From positions 54,975 to 118,974 of the forward strand of contig JAHFSP010000001.1 in NCBI GenBank assembly GCA_023265685.1: DNA of 64,000 bases. The letters are read 5' to 3'. The notes beneath the pieces were generated by a model that saw only the letters and a program-made list of their open reading frames with translations, had not been told where the DNA came from and made no database searches. The stretch comes from Candidatus Woesearchaeota archaeon (lineage in GTDB: Archaea; Nanobdellota; Nanobdellia; Woesearchaeales; GW2011-AR9). Position 1 is the first letter of the stretch. Each line of letters begins with the position of its first letter. The translations under genes and the position numbers were made by a program. Below, piece by piece: positions 1,083 through 57,122 of this stretch.

Positions 1083-1246
1083 ATTTGACAGAGTGGGGAG
1101 TTACATTCTTTATATAGATTCTGTTCGAAATTGGACAGGCGAAGGGAGATAATTCTTCAATTGTTGGAGAAATAGAAAATAACGTTACGCACTACGTGCG
1201 AGATTTCTGAGACTGTTATTTTTTGATAGGCTTTGTCTATGGTGCT

Positions 1247-1921
1247 CTACTGAGCACGAGAAGACATGACTCGAGTAAAGGAACCGCCGCTGTCATTCCA
1301 GCCACCAATGAGGTTCGAGTCGCCATGACTCTTCACGAAGAGCGCCCTCGTTTCGCCAACGGGAAGATTGGGAACAAGATGCGTATTCATTGCTGTGTAA
1401 TTTGAACTTTGTCCTTCCCACTGGCGTTCAACGTATTGATCAAGTGTATTTCTTCCTGCAAATTGCCAGACTGGGTGGGCTTTTGCTTGAGCTTTTGTGA
1501 GGAGAGTGTTATATAACCCATCTGCCCCATTGAATTCTTGGACATTAATACCATCAGCAACGAGGGAATCGTACTCCACAATAATTAATGATGGACGTGC
1601 CCTTTCGTGTATGTGTAGTAACGCGTCAGAGATGAGGGAGATCTTGAAGAGACCGTTTGGTCCGTAGGTGATTGAGGAACAGCTGTCGTCCCATCTTGTG
1701 CCGAGGTCCCAGTTGTTGAGACGGGCGAGCATGATTTCTTCGACAGTGAGGGGACGATAGATCGCTTCACCGTCAAGAACGTGAGTAGGATGGAGAACGG
1801 ATAGTCCTGCTTGTTGGTCTTGGTAGCAAGCGGCTTGGAGAGAGTGGTAGCCTTGGGCCCAGGTTCTTGTTTGAGGCATGAGTTCGACTGATTTTCCAGT
1901 AAGATTTTCGAGAAGTGACAT
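1247..1921 (-). CDS. Paralog-family protein copy 1 (unknown function, 224 aa, no signal peptide)
   Basis: 224-aa ORF highly similar to the ORFs at 27520..28197 and 33230..33910. Shared motifs include WAQGYH, ITYGPNGLFKISL and AHPVWQFAG. The C-terminal ~30 aa are hypervariable. Confidence 0.8.
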   Translation of the reverse strand: MSLLENLTGKSVELMPQTRTWAQGYHSLQAACYQDQQAGLSVLHPTHVLDGEAIYRPLTVEEIMLARLNNWDLGTRWDDSCSSITYGPNGLFKISLISDALLHIHERARPSLIIVEYDSLVADGINVQEFNGADGLYNTLLTKAQAKAHPVWQFAGRNTLDQYVERQWEGQSSNYTAMNTHLVPNLPVGETRALFVKSHGDSNLIGGWNDSGGSFTRVMSSRAQ

Positions 1922-26093: not shown

Positions 26094-26717
26094 ATGAACT
26101 TTAATCTAGCTCAATTTTTAGAAACACCTAAATTAAAATATGAATTTCTCCGTCTTGCTCTTGATGGAAGTAGTAGAGATAGAATTTGTTTACAAAATGA
26201 TTTTGACAACTCTTTCGTTTGCTATAATCCTGAAAATGCATGTGCAGCAGATAGAATAATCATGAGTTCTTATCCACTTTTTCATTATCCTTTTGCTTTT
26301 ATGCACACACCACGCTGTGCTGAAACTGATTTTAATGTTGCTGATTTTTTAAATCTTACAAGTTATGAGGAAGATACTCAAGAAAATCTTGGTTTTAAGT
26401 TTGCTCCTTTAGGAGTTGTAGTACGAGAGGCAAGAGATGTGAAAGTTGGAATGAAAGATCACTTACCATTGTTAGTTATTTCATTATATCGTTCTTCAAG
26501 AGACAATCCACTTGATCCAGAACTGATTTGCGATTTACTTCAGGATAAGATTAATGTTCCACCTTCTTATGTTCTGAAGTCGTTGACGCGAGTACACGTT
26601 GTATATGATTTAATTACAAAACGTTTCTCGGGTAATGCTTTTTACACTCCTGCTGGGGCACATAGCAGTGTTCAGTATCCAGCAACGTTTAGAGATGTTT
26701 GTGAGAGAATGAAGTAG
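26094..26717 (+). CDS. Hypothetical protein; its 3' end is duplicated downstream of the TA cassette
   Basis: 207-aa ORF. The last ~80 nt plus ~35 nt of 3' flank recur at 27240..27365. Confidence 0.5.
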   Translation: MNFNLAQFLETPKLKYEFLRLALDGSSRDRICLQNDFDNSFVCYNPENACAADRIIMSSYPLFHYPFAFMHTPRCAETDFNVADFLNLTSYEEDTQENLGFKFAPLGVVVREARDVKVGMKDHLPLLVISLYRSSRDNPLDPELICDLLQDKINVPPSYVLKSLTRVHVVYDLITKRFSGNAFYTPAGAHSSVQYPATFRDVCERMK

Positions 26718-26750
26718 AGGGAGATTAATTTTTTTGAGGTTTGATGAGTT
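26636..26750 (+). repeat. Direct repeat, left copy (3' end of gene 26094..26717 plus flank)
   Basis: About 80% identical to 27240..27365. The two copies bracket the RelE/antitoxin pair. Confidence 0.65.
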
Positions 26751-26777
26751 TTAGTTACAAGATAAGATATAATTTTG

Positions 26778-27032
26778 CTAATAGACTCTTTCTCTGTTAT
26801 CAACTTTTACAACAACAATTCTTTTTTCTTCATGATTAACTCTGTAAAGAGCCCGATAATCGCCTATTCTAATCCTAAATGTTGGTTCACTATAACCCTG
26901 AACTCTCTTTGAATCATGTGGAACCGGATTAAGAGCTAATTCCCCTAGTTTGTTAACAATCCTATCAAAAAGAATCTTTTCACATTTCTTAAGAAACTTA
27001 TCGGCCTGTTTATCAAGCGTTACTTCGAACAT
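26778..27032 (-). CDS. relE: RelE/ParE-superfamily toxin (mRNA interferase)
   Basis: C-terminal RIRIGDYRALYRVNHEEKRIVVVKVDNRERVY is a classic RelE motif. 84 aa. Overlaps the upstream antitoxin ORF by 20 nt. Confidence 0.8.
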   Translation of the reverse strand: MFEVTLDKQADKFLKKCEKILFDRIVNKLGELALNPVPHDSKRVQGYSEPTFRIRIGDYRALYRVNHEEKRIVVVKVDNRERVY

Positions 27033-27213
27033 TCTTAAGTTCCTCTAAAGAAATCAGTTTTCCAGCTTTCTCGTTTACAATACTCTCATCAATAAGTTTT
27101 TTTTCTTCTGCTGTGAGGATCGTATCTACATCTATCATGTGGGCTTTAATGTAATGAAGTTCATCCTTGATGTTCTTGAGTTCATCCATGATTAGTTCAG
27201 TTTCTGTTGCCAT
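27013..27213 (-). CDS. Putative antitoxin of the RelE pair
   Basis: 66-aa acidic helical protein immediately upstream of and overlapping relE. Confidence 0.5.
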   Translation of the reverse strand: MATETELIMDELKNIKDELHYIKAHMIDVDTILTAEEKKLIDESIVNEKAGKLISLEELKNVRSNA

Positions 27214-27239
27214 ATTTCACTGTAAGTAGAGGTAATTTA

Positions 27240-27365
27240 TATGGTTTTTGGCTATTTTCTCCTGCTGGAGCACATAGTAATATTCAATATCCAGCGACAT
27301 TTAGAAATGTTTGTGAAAGAGTAAAGTAGAAAAGAGGGTGAGTTATTTCTGAGGTTTTGAGTTGT
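27240..27365 (+). repeat. Direct repeat, right copy (degenerate copy of 26636..26750)
   Basis: Contains ...tcctgctggagcacatagtaatattcaatatccagcgacatttagaaatgtttgtgaaagagtaaagtag, matching the C-terminal coding sequence and stop of gene 26094..26717. Confidence 0.65.
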
Positions 27366-27519
27366 TATGATTGCTCACTGTTTTCACAGCGTCTCAAGGT
27401 AGTTGTAGAATAATGGAAGAGGATAAATTATTTTTTGAGTATTGGAAAGTAGGGGAAAATGTTGCGCGCGAGAATCTGAAGAGTTGTCCACTTTTTTGAC
27501 AGGCTTCGCCTGTGGCGCT

Positions 27520-28197
27520 CTACTCAGCGCGGATAGACACGACCCGAGCAAAGGAACCGCAGTCGTAGAGGTCGTAATTACCACCGAGGCTCGAATCGTA
27601 TTGATCGTTCACGAAGAGCGCCCTCATTTCACCAACTTGAGGATTGGAAACAAGATGCGTATTCATTGCGGTGTAATTTGAATTTTGTCCTTCCCACTGG
27701 CGATCAACGTAGGGATCAAGTGCATTTCCTCCTGCAAATTGCCAGACTGGGTGGGCTTTTGCTTGAGACTTTGTGAGTGGAGTGTCGTATATCCCGTCTG
27801 CTCTGTTGAATTCTCTGACGTTGACATCGTCAGCGATGAGAGAATCATACTCCATACGAGTGGATGTTTGATTGAATTCTTGTGGTAGGCGTAGTAACGC
27901 ATCGGAGACAAGAGAGATTTTGAAGAGGCCGTTTGGCCCATAGGTGATTGCAGAACAGCTGTCATTCCATTTTTGACCGAGGTCCCAGTTGCCGATACGG
28001 GCGAGCATGTTTTCTTCGACGGTGAGAGGACGGTAGATTGTTTTGCCGTCAAGAACATGAGTAGGGTGTTGTACAGTTCTTCCTGCTTGTTCGTCGGCTT
28101 TGCAGACGTCTTGGAGAGCGTGATAGCCTTGGGCCCAGGTTTTGGTTTGTGGCATGAGCTGAACGGTTTGTCCAGTAAGTTTTTCGAGGAATGACAT
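27520..28197 (-). CDS. Paralog-family protein copy 2 (225 aa)
   Basis: Same family as 1247..1921 and 33230..33910. The 5' ~235 nt are near-identical to copy 3. Confidence 0.8.
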   Translation of the reverse strand: MSFLEKLTGQTVQLMPQTKTWAQGYHALQDVCKADEQAGRTVQHPTHVLDGKTIYRPLTVEENMLARIGNWDLGQKWNDSCSAITYGPNGLFKISLVSDALLRLPQEFNQTSTRMEYDSLIADDVNVREFNRADGIYDTPLTKSQAKAHPVWQFAGGNALDPYVDRQWEGQNSNYTAMNTHLVSNPQVGEMRALFVNDQYDSSLGGNYDLYDCGSFARVVSIRAE

Positions 28198-28221
28198 GTA
28201 GAGGGTTGTAACCGGAAAGTG

Positions 28222-28229
28222 TTTATAAA
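28222..28229 (-). promoter_or_regulatory. TATA box ~25 nt upstream of the copy-2 start
   Basis: tttataaa, with the same downstream tttgttgttactttaaagttat block as at copy 3. Confidence 0.45.
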
Positions 28230-28481
28230 TTTTATCTTTTTGTTGTTACTTTAAAGTTATTATTGTTATCTTGATTTGGTAGTCCCACTATTTGACCAAT
28301 ACAATATTGAATATTTGCCTTACATGACCCATCAGTAAAACTTTCTCACTATTTTCCATACCATCTTTGTTTTGTCACAGTTCTTACAAAAAGAAAACAA
28401 AATTTCTGAACGTCTCGTTTCTCACTAGCCACTGGTCAAGTCCGCAAAACTCTTTTAAAGCGTTCTTTCTATAATAGAGGG

Positions 28482-33133: not shown

Positions 33134-33229
33134 GAAGGTAACGAAAGAAAAAGAGAATATAAGTCTTTCGAGTTGAGTGATTATTATGTTATTTTTAGAG
33201 TCTTAGAGAGAAGTCAAGCTTGTGAGATA

Positions 33230-33910
33230 CTAGCGAGCGCGGATGGGCACGACCCGAGCAAAGGAACCGTTGACGTAGGGGTCATAATTCTTACAACCAA
33301 AGTTCGAGCTGTTATGATTGCCCACGCAGAGCGCTCTCGTTTCACCAACTTGAGGATTGGAAAAAAGACATGTGCCCATTGCTGCGTAATCTGAATTTTT
33401 TCCTTGCCACTGGCGTTCAACGTATTGATCAAGTGCATTTCCTGCTGCGAATTGCCAGACTGGATGGGCTTTTGCTTGGGACTTTGTGAGTGGAGTGTCG
33501 TATATCCCGTCTGCTCTGTTGAATTCTCTGACATTGACACCATCAGCGACGAGAGAATCATACCCTATATTGAGAGATAGTTTATTGAAGTCTCGGGGTA
33601 GACGCAGAAGAGCATCAGAGATGAGAGAGATTTTGATACGACCGTTGGGTCCATAGGTGATTGCAGAACAGCTGTCATTCCATTTTTGACCGAGGTCCCA
33701 GTTGCCGATACGGGCGAGCATGTTTTCTTCGACGGTGAGAGGACGGTAGATTGTTTTGCCGTCAAGAACATGAGTAGGGTGTTGTACAGTTCTTCCTGCT
33801 TGTTCGTCGGCTTTGCAGACGTCTTGGAGAGCGTGATAGCCTTGGGCCCAGGTTTTGGTTTGTGGCATGAGCTGAACGGTTTGTCGAGTAAGTGTTTCGA
33901 GAAGTGACAT
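33230..33910 (-). CDS. Paralog-family protein copy 3 (226 aa)
   Basis: Same family as copies 1 and 2. N-terminal half is near-identical to copy 2 at the nucleotide level. Confidence 0.8.
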   Translation of the reverse strand: MSLLETLTRQTVQLMPQTKTWAQGYHALQDVCKADEQAGRTVQHPTHVLDGKTIYRPLTVEENMLARIGNWDLGQKWNDSCSAITYGPNGRIKISLISDALLRLPRDFNKLSLNIGYDSLVADGVNVREFNRADGIYDTPLTKSQAKAHPVWQFAAGNALDQYVERQWQGKNSDYAAMGTCLFSNPQVGETRALCVGNHNSSNFGCKNYDPYVNGSFARVVPIRAR

Positions 33911-33935
33911 GTTGGGCTACTATGATTAAAGTGCA

Positions 33936-33944
33936 TTTATAAAT
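33936..33944 (-). promoter_or_regulatory. TATA box ~26 nt upstream of the copy-3 start
   Basis: tttataaat followed by gtttcttttgttgttacttttaagttat, conserved with copy 2. Confidence 0.45.
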
Positions 33945-33970
33945 GTTTCTTTTGTTGTTACTTTTAAGTT

Positions 33971-34330
33971 ATGATCTATTCGGACCACTGTTTACATAAT
34001 CTTTTTATAAGTATTAAGTCTAGGATACCTATGGCATTCTCAAAACCGTTTCCAAAGCAGGTTCCAGGGAGTAATTATCCTCTTTGGGAGGAAGTGACGC
34101 TTGATGACCAAGAGGAGTATGAGGTAGAGGAGATTTGTCGTAGGGAGAATATGCGACTGATGGATCAGGCATTAAGCGATGCTAAAGTTTTGGCGATTAA
34201 GCATGGTATTAATGAGGATGGGATTCGTGCAACACTTGCGGTTTCTCTTTTTGAAAAACTAGCATCTCATGTGGTGTTTTGGAAAGAGCATCGTACCAAA
34301 GAGAGATGGGATGAGAAGAATCAGCGGTAG
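33971..34330 (+). CDS. Hypothetical protein
   Basis: 119-aa ORF. Likely start at the internal Met (MAFSKPFPK). Confidence 0.35.
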   Translation: MIYSDHCLHNLFISIKSRIPMAFSKPFPKQVPGSNYPLWEEVTLDDQEEYEVEEICRRENMRLMDQALSDAKVLAIKHGINEDGIRATLAVSLFEKLASHVVFWKEHRTKERWDEKNQR

Positions 34331-40991: not shown

Positions 40992-41103
40992 GCGGATCCG
41001 ATGGGATTTGAACCCACGATCTACAGCTATCGTCGTGAGATGAACTCTACAGCTCTGATCTCAGGTAGAAGGCTGTCGCGCTATCCAGGCTACGCTACGG
41101 ATC
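40992..41103 (-). tRNA. tRNA-Arg (anticodon UCU) with a 37-nt intron at the canonical 37/38 position
   Basis: Hand-folded. Acceptor ggatccg/cggatcc, U8A9, D-arm gcgt-agccuggaua-gcgc, anticodon stem acagc/gctgt, loop cuUCUa, T-arm gtggg-TTCAAAT-cccat. No encoded CCA. T-run follows the 3' end. Confidence 0.8.
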
Positions 41104-41158
41104 CACAAAAGCTTCTTCGTCAGATAACTTTTAAATATTTCGTCTATAAAAATGGTGT

Positions 41159-56081: not shown

Positions 56082-57122
56082 TCATTTCCACTGATTTCTG
56101 GTATCGTAACTAACCACTTGATCACGGTCAGATACACCAAATCTGCCCTGTTTTGCAGCATACATCGCAAGATCAGCCTCTTCAATCAAAGCAGCAACTT
56201 CTTTCTTTTTATCGTTCCCAAAATAAGTAGTCAAACCTATGCTAGCAGTTTGTTGATGTTTTGTGTCAATACCTTTCTCTGCTAATCGCGAAGCATAATC
56301 TACTTCACGCACTGCCTTTAAGCATCGCTGCGCAACAAGCATTGCTTCATTTTGATTTTTAAGAATAAAAGCAAACACTAACTCTTCACCACCATACCGC
56401 AACCCAATATCCTCTTCACGTAAAGATTTTCTCATTGCTTGTGCTGAATTAGTAAGAACATAATCTCCAAAATCATGCCCATATTTATCATTCGCAAGTT
56501 TGAAATGATCTAAATCAGCAAGCAAGATCCCAATTCCATTATCTGTTTTGGTTACAGCGCAGGTTTCCAATAAAATTTTTATTCTCTCCATACCAATTTC
56601 CCGTCGAAGAAGACCAGTAAGATCATCATGGCTTAATTCATCAATTTTTCGTACTATTGTTAAATTATCAGCAATAACCTTAGCCATAAAACGAATCGTA
56701 TCTCGTGATGGATTAGCCTGAGTTGTTGGTGTATAAACATGAAGTTCTCCCATAACTTTCCCTCCAGCACTAACCATGGTTTCATGACGATAAGAACTCT
56801 CTCCAGTTTGTTGAGGGGCAAGTCCTACTGGCGTAAAAAGTTTTTCTAATGGGAGCAATTGTTCTCTTTCTAATTCACAGACACGCTTCTTATCCTTTTT
56901 ATAATCATTTTTTGCAGATTTTTCCAATTCAATACGAACCTGAGAACCAGGAATTATCGCACTTAAAAATGATTCATATCTGGCGATAGCAGTTGATACG
57001 CCATCTGCCATTTCATACAACCCCGTTAACAGAGTGTACAAATCTCTTTCTCGTAGATTAGAAAATGATCCATTGGCTCGTTCTCGAGCGTATTCAATGT
57101 GTTCTTGCAGCCCCATTTTCAT
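56082..57122 (-). CDS. GGDEF-domain protein (diguanylate cyclase-like; GGEEL variant of the signature)
   Basis: DDLTGLLRRE, DLDHFKLANDKYGHDFGDYVL, RYGGEEL, TASIGL and ADLAMYAAKQGR match GGDEF motifs in order. About 170 aa of N-terminal sequence with unknown sensory function. Confidence 0.7.
   Translation of the reverse strand: MKMGLQEHIEYARERANGSFSNLRERDLYTLLTGLYEMADGVSTAIARYESFLSAIIPGSQVRIELEKSAKNDYKKDKKRVCELEREQLLPLEKLFTPVGLAPQQTGESSYRHETMVSAGGKVMGELHVYTPTTQANPSRDTIRFMAKVIADNLTIVRKIDELSHDDLTGLLRREIGMERIKILLETCAVTKTDNGIGILLADLDHFKLANDKYGHDFGDYVLTNSAQAMRKSLREEDIGLRYGGEELVFAFILKNQNEAMLVAQRCLKAVREVDYASRLAEKGIDTKHQQTASIGLTTYFGNDKKKEVAALIEEADLAMYAAKQGRFGVSDRDQVVSYDTRNQWK

Follow-up and report, generated by a model that had tools for sequence, protein, structure and literature searches.

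The GC-rich hairpins at the 3' ends of two paralogous genes in the 64-kb stretch of DNA analysed here (the window) are probably target-site elements of a diversity-generating retroelement (DGR), i.e. inverted repeats of the hairpin or cruciform kind placed at the 3' boundary of a variable repeat (VR). In characterised DGRs, a reverse transcriptase (RT) copies the RNA of a template repeat (TR) and misincorporates at adenines, the cDNA replaces the VR, and an element for initiation of mutagenic homing (IMH) together with a hairpin just past the VR/TR homology provides the cis signals that mark the recipient. A corresponding anatomy was observed in the window, where the last ~30 codons of the paralogs lead from a hypervariable core to a GSFARVV IMH-like block, followed by one or two GC-rich hairpins and an A-tract (Table 1). 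The modelled protein has the fold of a DGR variable protein, and homologous genes elsewhere are DGR targets with a hairpin at the same offset. We infer a present or recent role of the window hairpins in retrohoming. The initial annotation had listed a DGR-type target-recognition hairpin among several possible roles, and this is the role supported by the AvpA-like fold, the TR/RT cassettes of the family and the same-offset family hairpins.

The paralog genes and their putative variable repeat

Three paralogous targets are spread across 32 kb of the window. Copy 1 is 68% and copy 3 is 82% identical to copy 2 and, compared as genes, copies 1 and 2 are ~80% identical. The encoded proteins gave no match in Pfam or NCBIfam, and only 4 close relatives were found among 5.8 billion proteins searched. 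An exhaustive profile search assembled an unannotated family of ~228 clusters (228 cluster representatives). This family shares a C-terminal layout, in which QLRALFV is followed by a highly variable stretch of ~17 residues, where N, D, S, G and Y abound, and then by GSFLRVAP.

Table 1. Features of the three paralogs and their 3' flanks, with positions numbered along the window.
Feature	Position	Strand	Basis or remark
Copy 1, gene for a 224-aa paralog	1247..1921	-	Hypervariable core at 1286-1333
H1 of copy 1, GTGCTC-AGTA-GAGCAC, spanning the stop codon	1242..1257	-	Folding
Degenerate H2 counterpart of copy 1, ATAGAC-AAA-GCCTAT, with an A.C mismatch	1226..1240	-	Folding
A6 tract of copy 1	1219..1224	-	Sense strand
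Copy 2, gene for a 225-aa AvpA-like variable protein with a predicted C-type-lectin fold	27520..28197	-	ORF and fold match
Hypervariable core of the putative VR of copy 2, encoding NDQYDSSLGGNYDLYDC	27559..27609	-	Translation and three-copy comparison
Conserved block GGTTCCTTTGCTCGGGTCGTG (GSFARVV), candidate IMH equivalent at the VR 3' end	27538..27558	-	Homology
H1 of copy 2, GCGCT-GAGTAG-AGCGC, with the stop TAG (27520-27522) in the loop	27515..27530	-	Folding
Alternative pairing CGCC-ACA-GGCG, overlapping H1 and H2 of copy 2	27507..27517	-	MAFFT alignment
H2 of copy 2, ACAGGC-GAA-GCCTGT, 6-bp stem and GAA triloop	27499..27513	-	Folding
A6 tract of copy 2, closing the conserved 3' unit	27492..27497	-	Sense strand
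Copy 3, gene for a 226-aa paralog	33230..33910	-	Hypervariable core at 33269-33322
A-run of copy 3	~33189-33193		Sense-strand run of at least 5

The AF2 (AlphaFold) model of copy 2 reached a pLDDT of 90.5, and in a Foldseek comparison with the PDB its sole match below E = 1e-3 was 5IOO_A (AvpA; E = 2.7e-7, TMq 0.61). The model thus identifies the paralogs as AvpA-like DGR variable proteins with a CLec fold, in which the VR occupies the C-terminal strands. At the sequence level, profile searches of PDB sequences (E up to 10) returned no link to AvpA, and the AvpA motifs GxxVVVYAH, HPxxxPFxG and RFxGV have only loose counterparts in the window protein (HPVWQFAGG, SFARV). The two proteins also differ in layout, the VR lying at the very C-terminus in the window and 46 residues before it in AvpA.

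The putative VR was compared among the three copies. Among its 16 aligned codons, codon positions 1, 2 and 3 are variable in 12, 11 and 8 cases, against 53, 37 and 71 of 203 in the remainder of the gene, so that first and second positions vary in ~70% of VR codons versus ~20% elsewhere. Third codon positions in the window VRs are 86% pyrimidine, and at 20 of the 23 variable first and second positions at least one copy carries A. The variation is mostly between A and G and is concentrated at codon positions 1 and 2. Across the three sequences, the hypervariable codons are limited to a short stretch at the C-terminus and vary at positions of the AAY type. The GGTTCCTTTGCTCGGGTCGTG block that follows is the same in copies 2 and 3 and in a truncated copy on L003, a contig adjoining the window; it corresponds to GGGTCTTTCCTCCGAGTAGCCCC in the family, where it is the end point of VR/TR homology.

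Additional observations were made around the copy-2 locus. In another sample (ENA ERZ27297570), the syntenic copy-2 gene, which encodes protein P0003, the only close orthologue, is 76% identical to that of the window, with differences extending past the VR, and the adjacent 207-aa protein is 100% identical to its window counterpart; the 76% identity beside an identical neighbour suggests that this locus turns over or recombines rapidly. In two ENA assemblies and one SRA run, the contigs of this strain end at window positions ~28032-28260 and 33745-33972; these are assembly breaks induced by repeats, as the 5' portions of copies 2 and 3 in which they fall are almost identical. Immediately downstream of copy 2, a 72-nt direct repeat (26647-26718 and 27259-27330, 85% identical) duplicates the 3' end of ORF 26094..26717 and brackets, between its two units (26778-27213), a ParE-family toxin gene (26778..27032, minus strand) and a gene for a 66-aa partner. 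This region looks like a toxin-antitoxin cassette inserted with target duplication.

Other features of the window concern the host. A 112-nt tRNA at 40993-41104 (minus strand), matched by Rfam with 54 bits and not reported by ARAGORN, is probably an intron-containing archaeal tRNA. A 346-aa GGDEF (diguanylate cyclase) domain protein is encoded at 56082-57122 on the minus strand, in a genome that has an otherwise DPANN-like appearance, with Topo VI, EF-2 and Hef; GGDEF proteins are not known to be common in archaea.

Hairpins behind the putative variable repeat in the window

On the sense strand, copy 2 ends in ...CGC GCT GAG TAG AGCGCC ACAGGCGAAGCCTGT CAAAAAA and copy 1 in CGT GCT CAG TAG AGCACC ATAGACAAAGCCTAT CAAAAAA. 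The initial annotation had proposed two successive hairpins in each copy, the first with the stop codon in its loop, and three of these four structures are present. In copy 2, the first hairpin (H1) is found exactly as described, with a folding energy of -4.6 kcal/mol when taken alone (z = -2.05; 7 of 200 shuffles as good). Its second hairpin (H2) is best drawn with a 6-bp stem and a GAA triloop and folds at -5.0 kcal/mol (z = -4.6). Together, H1 and H2 of copy 2 reach -9.6 kcal/mol as DNA (z = -2.7; equalled by 4 of 200 shuffles) and -16.3 kcal/mol as RNA. An alternative pairing, CGCC-ACA-GGCG, overlaps both; this stretch was aligned by MAFFT to the family hairpin core GCGCC-GNA-GGCGC, which it resembles. 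H1 of copy 1 folds better than had been described, with 6 bp and -5.8 kcal/mol (z = -4.1). The second hairpin claimed for copy 1 (auag-acaaagc-cuau) did not hold up: its sequence gives no fold, at 0 kcal/mol, and 200 of 200 shuffles are as good. Copy 3 indeed has a different 3' flank, in which the sequence diverges or has been replaced straight after the stop codon and no hairpin is formed (z = +0.9). The absence of the element from copy 3 and of H2 from copy 1 are points against the target-site reading.

The hairpins of the window exceed chance expectation. A census of perfect hairpins in the 64-kb window (39% GC) yields only 16 (stem 6 bp or longer, GC content 50% or higher, loop 3-4 nt), among them H1 of copy 1 and H2 of copy 2. 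When the stop codons of the 55 ORFs of at least 150 aa are ranked by hairpin strength, copies 1 and 2 take the 2nd and 4th places; strong hairpins are rare at the other gene ends of this genome. The explanation that the inverted repeats are meaningless sequences inherited with the gene duplication, i.e. chance combined with shared ancestry, has in its favour that the hairpins are found in two sequences only, that H1 of copy 2 taken alone is marginal over its shuffles and that the compensatory pattern described below is one of transitions throughout. We consider it highly improbable, given that two of the 16 strong hairpins in 64 kb lie at just these two stops, that hairpins at the same offset occur in distant family members with 30-45% protein identity and that the family as a whole is enriched over control stops.

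Compensatory base changes in the stems had been put forward as the main argument for selection on structure. One C-G to T-A compensatory pair was confirmed in each hairpin, and these two pairs are real. The stems of copies 1 and 2 differ at 5 positions, all by transitions, of which 4 form the two pairs and 1 breaks a pair; by simple combinatorics, such a pattern between two sequences has P ~0.05. With two sequences, five stem differences and transitions only, the compensatory-change argument is marginal when taken alone.

A role as an RNA element, independent of any retroelement, was also weighed. The hairpins would then act at the mRNA 3' end, in transcript stability or as a termination context, and the good folding of the copy 2 RNA and the position of the stop codon within the H1 loop agree with such a role. 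Several observations make it quite improbable. An intrinsic terminator consists of a GC hairpin and a T-run, whereas the sense strand continues after H2 with CAAAAAA, an A-run, and when 26700-28400 was scanned on both strands, nothing resembling a terminator was called at the hairpins; the transcript 3'-end role suggested in the initial annotation is accordingly not supported, nor is a reading as terminators. Rfam returned no match, and the rarity of strong hairpins at other gene ends of this genome also counts against an RNA element. Furthermore, in the family the distance from the hairpin to the VR end is fixed, while the hairpin may lie before, across or after the stop codon. Because the hairpin keeps its distance to the VR end and not to the stop, a role tied to translation termination is argued against.

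Homologous DGR targets and the position of their hairpins

The loci of relatives compared with the window comprised 55 metagenome and 2 genome loci. Many of them carry a second, non-coding copy of the C-terminal stretch, the TR, a few hundred bases downstream. All VR/TR mismatches were located at TR adenines in L002 (15/15), L009 (15/15), L011 (10/10), L015 (14/14), L022 (20/20) and L036 (11/11), as were 12 of 13 in L007 and 15 of 16 in L030. Pooled over six VR/TR pairs, the changes were A>G in 53 cases, A>T in 25 and A>C in 4, with 1 other (82 of 83 at adenines). Additionally, genes for DGR-type RTs with the YVDD motif were identified after the TR in L011 and L015, and several loci contain 3-4 paralogous targets each, like the window. 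By these features, the protein family is a true DGR target.

The homology of VR and TR in the family runs up to ..GTAGCCCC, with the VR closing on ..CGAGTAGCCCC and the TR on ..CGAATAACCCAAGC. Beyond this point, the TR flank runs on as CAAGGCTTTTTATT, and the VR flank instead contains a GC-rich inverted repeat, so that the hairpin is present in the VR flank only. The motif at the IMH end, GTAGCCC, was conserved at the DNA level under two readings (L030, L034, L069 and L073 versus the other loci, alignment A6): it supplies Val-Ala codons in some members, and in others its TAG is the stop codon. This conservation under two different readings points to selection acting on the DNA motif itself.

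Hairpin positions were counted as offsets from the Gly codon of GSF in all sequences. In the family, the hairpin begins 28-34 nt from this codon, shortly beyond the point where VR and TR cease to be homologous, and has the core GCGCC-GNA/GNNA-GGCGC with the loops GTA, GCA, GAA, GTGA and GTTA. In L007, L008, L011, L020 and L036, the stop codon (offset 36) is found within the hairpin, where it either occupies the loop or extends from the loop into the 3' arm. The window shows the same arrangement, with the start of H1 at offset 28, the stop codon at offset 36 and the start of H2 at offset 45. Placed by homology, the VR of the window ends at ..GTCGTG (offset ~21-23), and its inverted repeat falls within 4-34 bp past the end of VR homology, the range given below for other DGRs; the TR flanks of the family are without a hairpin.

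Hairpins of -6 kcal/mol or lower were observed at 25% of 56 family VR ends compared with 2% of 378 control ORF stops, and the strengths of the two sets, taken from the same loci, differ with a Mann-Whitney P of 5e-8. The closest outgroup, L069, whose protein is 43% identical to that of the window, has two tandem hairpins after the stop (GCGGC-GCA-GCCGC, then AGCGCC-AGCA-GGCGCT). Some members with clean TR/VR pairs (L015, L022) have no GC hairpin, so the hairpin is not obligatory in the family. RNAalifold, run on the anchored family alignment, recovered a hairpin core limited to 4 bp because loop-length differences upset the alignment; covariation across the family is modest, since the inner four pairs are invariant.

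The A-tract that follows forms part of the conserved unit. Homology between copies 1 and 2 ends at the A6 tract (repeat family D6, ending at 27492 and 1219). Among the family loci (L005-L054), 33 of 54 members have a sense-strand A-run of at least 5 behind the VR, compared with 26% for the control stops (P = 4e-7). The run begins at offset 27-31 in members without a hairpin and at offset 45-60 in those with one, as if the hairpin had been inserted between the VR end and the A-tract. An A-tract after the VR end or hairpin, recurring across a family, finds no mention in the DGR literature compared here.

The window element can be compared with three groups of known systems. Homing of the BPP-1 DGR depends on a hairpin or cruciform immediately beyond the VR, for which the structure of the stem matters and not its sequence; comparable inverted repeats of other DGRs, with stems of 7-10 bp and GRNA loops, occur 4-34 bp behind the VR (Guo et al. 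2011, PMC3240598). Like these elements of Bordetella phage BPP-1 and other phage DGRs, the window hairpins are GC-rich inverted repeats at the stop codon of the gene, a short distance beyond the stretch shared by VR and TR. Here, too, pairing persists although the stem sequence changes from locus to locus, and the element is found beside the VR but not beside the TR. They do not have the phage-type geometry of a 7-10 bp stem and a 4-nt GRNA loop: their stems are 5-6 bp and their loops GAGTAG, AGTA and GAA. Further differences from the phage systems are the two adjacent hairpins and the A-tract in copy 2, and a cognate TR/RT that was not located.

The second group consists of nanoarchaeal DGRs, whose hairpins carry GRA trinucleotide loops and can be located within the target gene itself (Paul et al. 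2015, PMC4372165), with a like description for AvpA (Handa et al. 2016, PMC5006420; PDB 5IOO). The window resembles the Nanoarchaeota DUSEL4 DGRs in its DPANN-type host, in the C-type-lectin fold, in a hairpin that overlaps the coding region and in having multiple targets per genome, including VRs without an adjacent RT. A GRA triloop is present in H2 of copy 2 (GAA) and absent from H1 of both copies; the H2 remnant of copy 1 has AAA. The third group is that of the complete DGR cassettes of the family itself in metagenomes (for example L011, which is a Woesearchaeota contig, L015, L022 and L036). These share with the window homologous targets, the layout of the VR, several paralogs, a hairpin offset of 28-34, often with the stop codon in the loop, and the A-tract behind it. 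They differ in having a TR and an RT within 0.3-3 kb and the conserved core GCGCC-GNA-GGCGC, whereas the copies in the window are dispersed over 32 kb, have different stem sequences and lie without a TR/RT in reach.

Template, reverse transcriptase and the present state of the targets

Relaxed blastn searches of the 64-kb window with the three VR regions returned the three copies only, and no TR. An RT-like ORF was likewise not found in the window, where the sole YxDD match lies in an unrelated protein. Beyond the window, neither TR nor RT was detected in ~5 kb before its start and ~9.6 kb past its end (~14.6 kb), and no RT Pfam domain was present on flanking or overlapping contigs. Among the 120 matches listed of 7442, no RT homologue was placed on the contig of the window. 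A scan of viral contigs found no IMH-like block. Three ENA assemblies and one SRA run contain contigs of this strain, which match the window at 99.97-100% identity, the three VRs included. As the VRs are identical across samples, no ongoing diversification is visible at the consensus level in the samples carrying this strain.

A truncated and frameshifted fourth copy was identified on the adjoining contig (L003, 13041-13245), preceding the window by ~1.1-1.3 kb. This copy comprises a TTTATAAA box of its own and an ATG with the first 25 codons, which run out of frame into the VR span. The VR homology of the copy stops exactly at ..GTCGTGCC, the same point at which VR/TR homology ends in the family, and is followed by an AT-rich inverted repeat, ATCTTT-ATTA-AAAGAT. 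The segment 13118-13227 of this copy was considered as a TR and rejected, as its mismatches are not adenine-specific, it is not A-rich and the IMH-type Gs are present.

Current DGR activity at the window targets is unproven, because the window and the ~14.6 kb around it contain no TR or RT and the VRs are identical across samples. These results also bear on a relic reading, according to which the genes derive from DGR targets whose retroelement has since disappeared or relocated, and the hairpins are decaying without a present function. It would account for the absence of TR and RT from the ~78 kb examined, for the identical VRs, for the hairpin-less copy 3 and the unstable H2 of copy 1, and for the truncated fourth copy next to the window. 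Third-position drift inside the VR shows the diversification to be old, and the closest outgroup contigs are likewise without an RT. For nanoarchaea, VRs that lack a neighbouring RT have been reported and read either as fossils or as remote targets (PMC4372165). On the other side, a compensatory C-G to T-A change keeps the H1 stem stable in the two copies, with even a sixth pair gained in copy 1. Copies 1 and 2, as genes no more than ~80% identical, remain homologous beyond the stop codon precisely up to the A-tract, and the search for TR and RT covered about half of the 131-kb contig. On balance, we regard the relic reading as somewhat unlikely, and it is the strongest of the alternatives to a target-site element in use or recently in use. 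If the hairpins are DGR target-site elements, the choice between live remote targets and recent fossils is roughly evenly poised.

Under the favoured target-site reading, the VR of each paralog, made up of the core and the IMH-like GSFARVV block, would form together with the hairpins a recipient site for TR-derived cDNA. The hairpins, lying just past the VR end, would be a cis signal for homing in which the structure of the stem, and not its sequence, matters. We expect the cognate TR and RT to lie elsewhere in this genome. A more elaborate and speculative version, which we think unlikely, would have a composite recipient module of tandem or overlapping GC hairpins under compensatory turnover, followed by the conserved A-tract, so that one distant TR/RT could diversify scattered paralogs tens of kilobases apart. 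In that version, the mini-copy on L003, whose promoter, start codon and first 25 codons are joined precisely onto the VR span, could be either a by-product of aberrant homing or a nascent template.

The analysis assigns the window hairpins to a known mechanistic class and identifies three previously unannotated paralogs as DGR-type hypervariable surface-binding proteins, as predicted from fold and homology, in a DPANN-like archaeon. If confirmed, dispersed targets without a TR or RT in ~78 kb would bear on whether archaeal DGRs act in trans or whether such targets are fossils. For annotation, the combination of a hairpin with a GSF-type IMH block could be used to flag orphan DGR targets.
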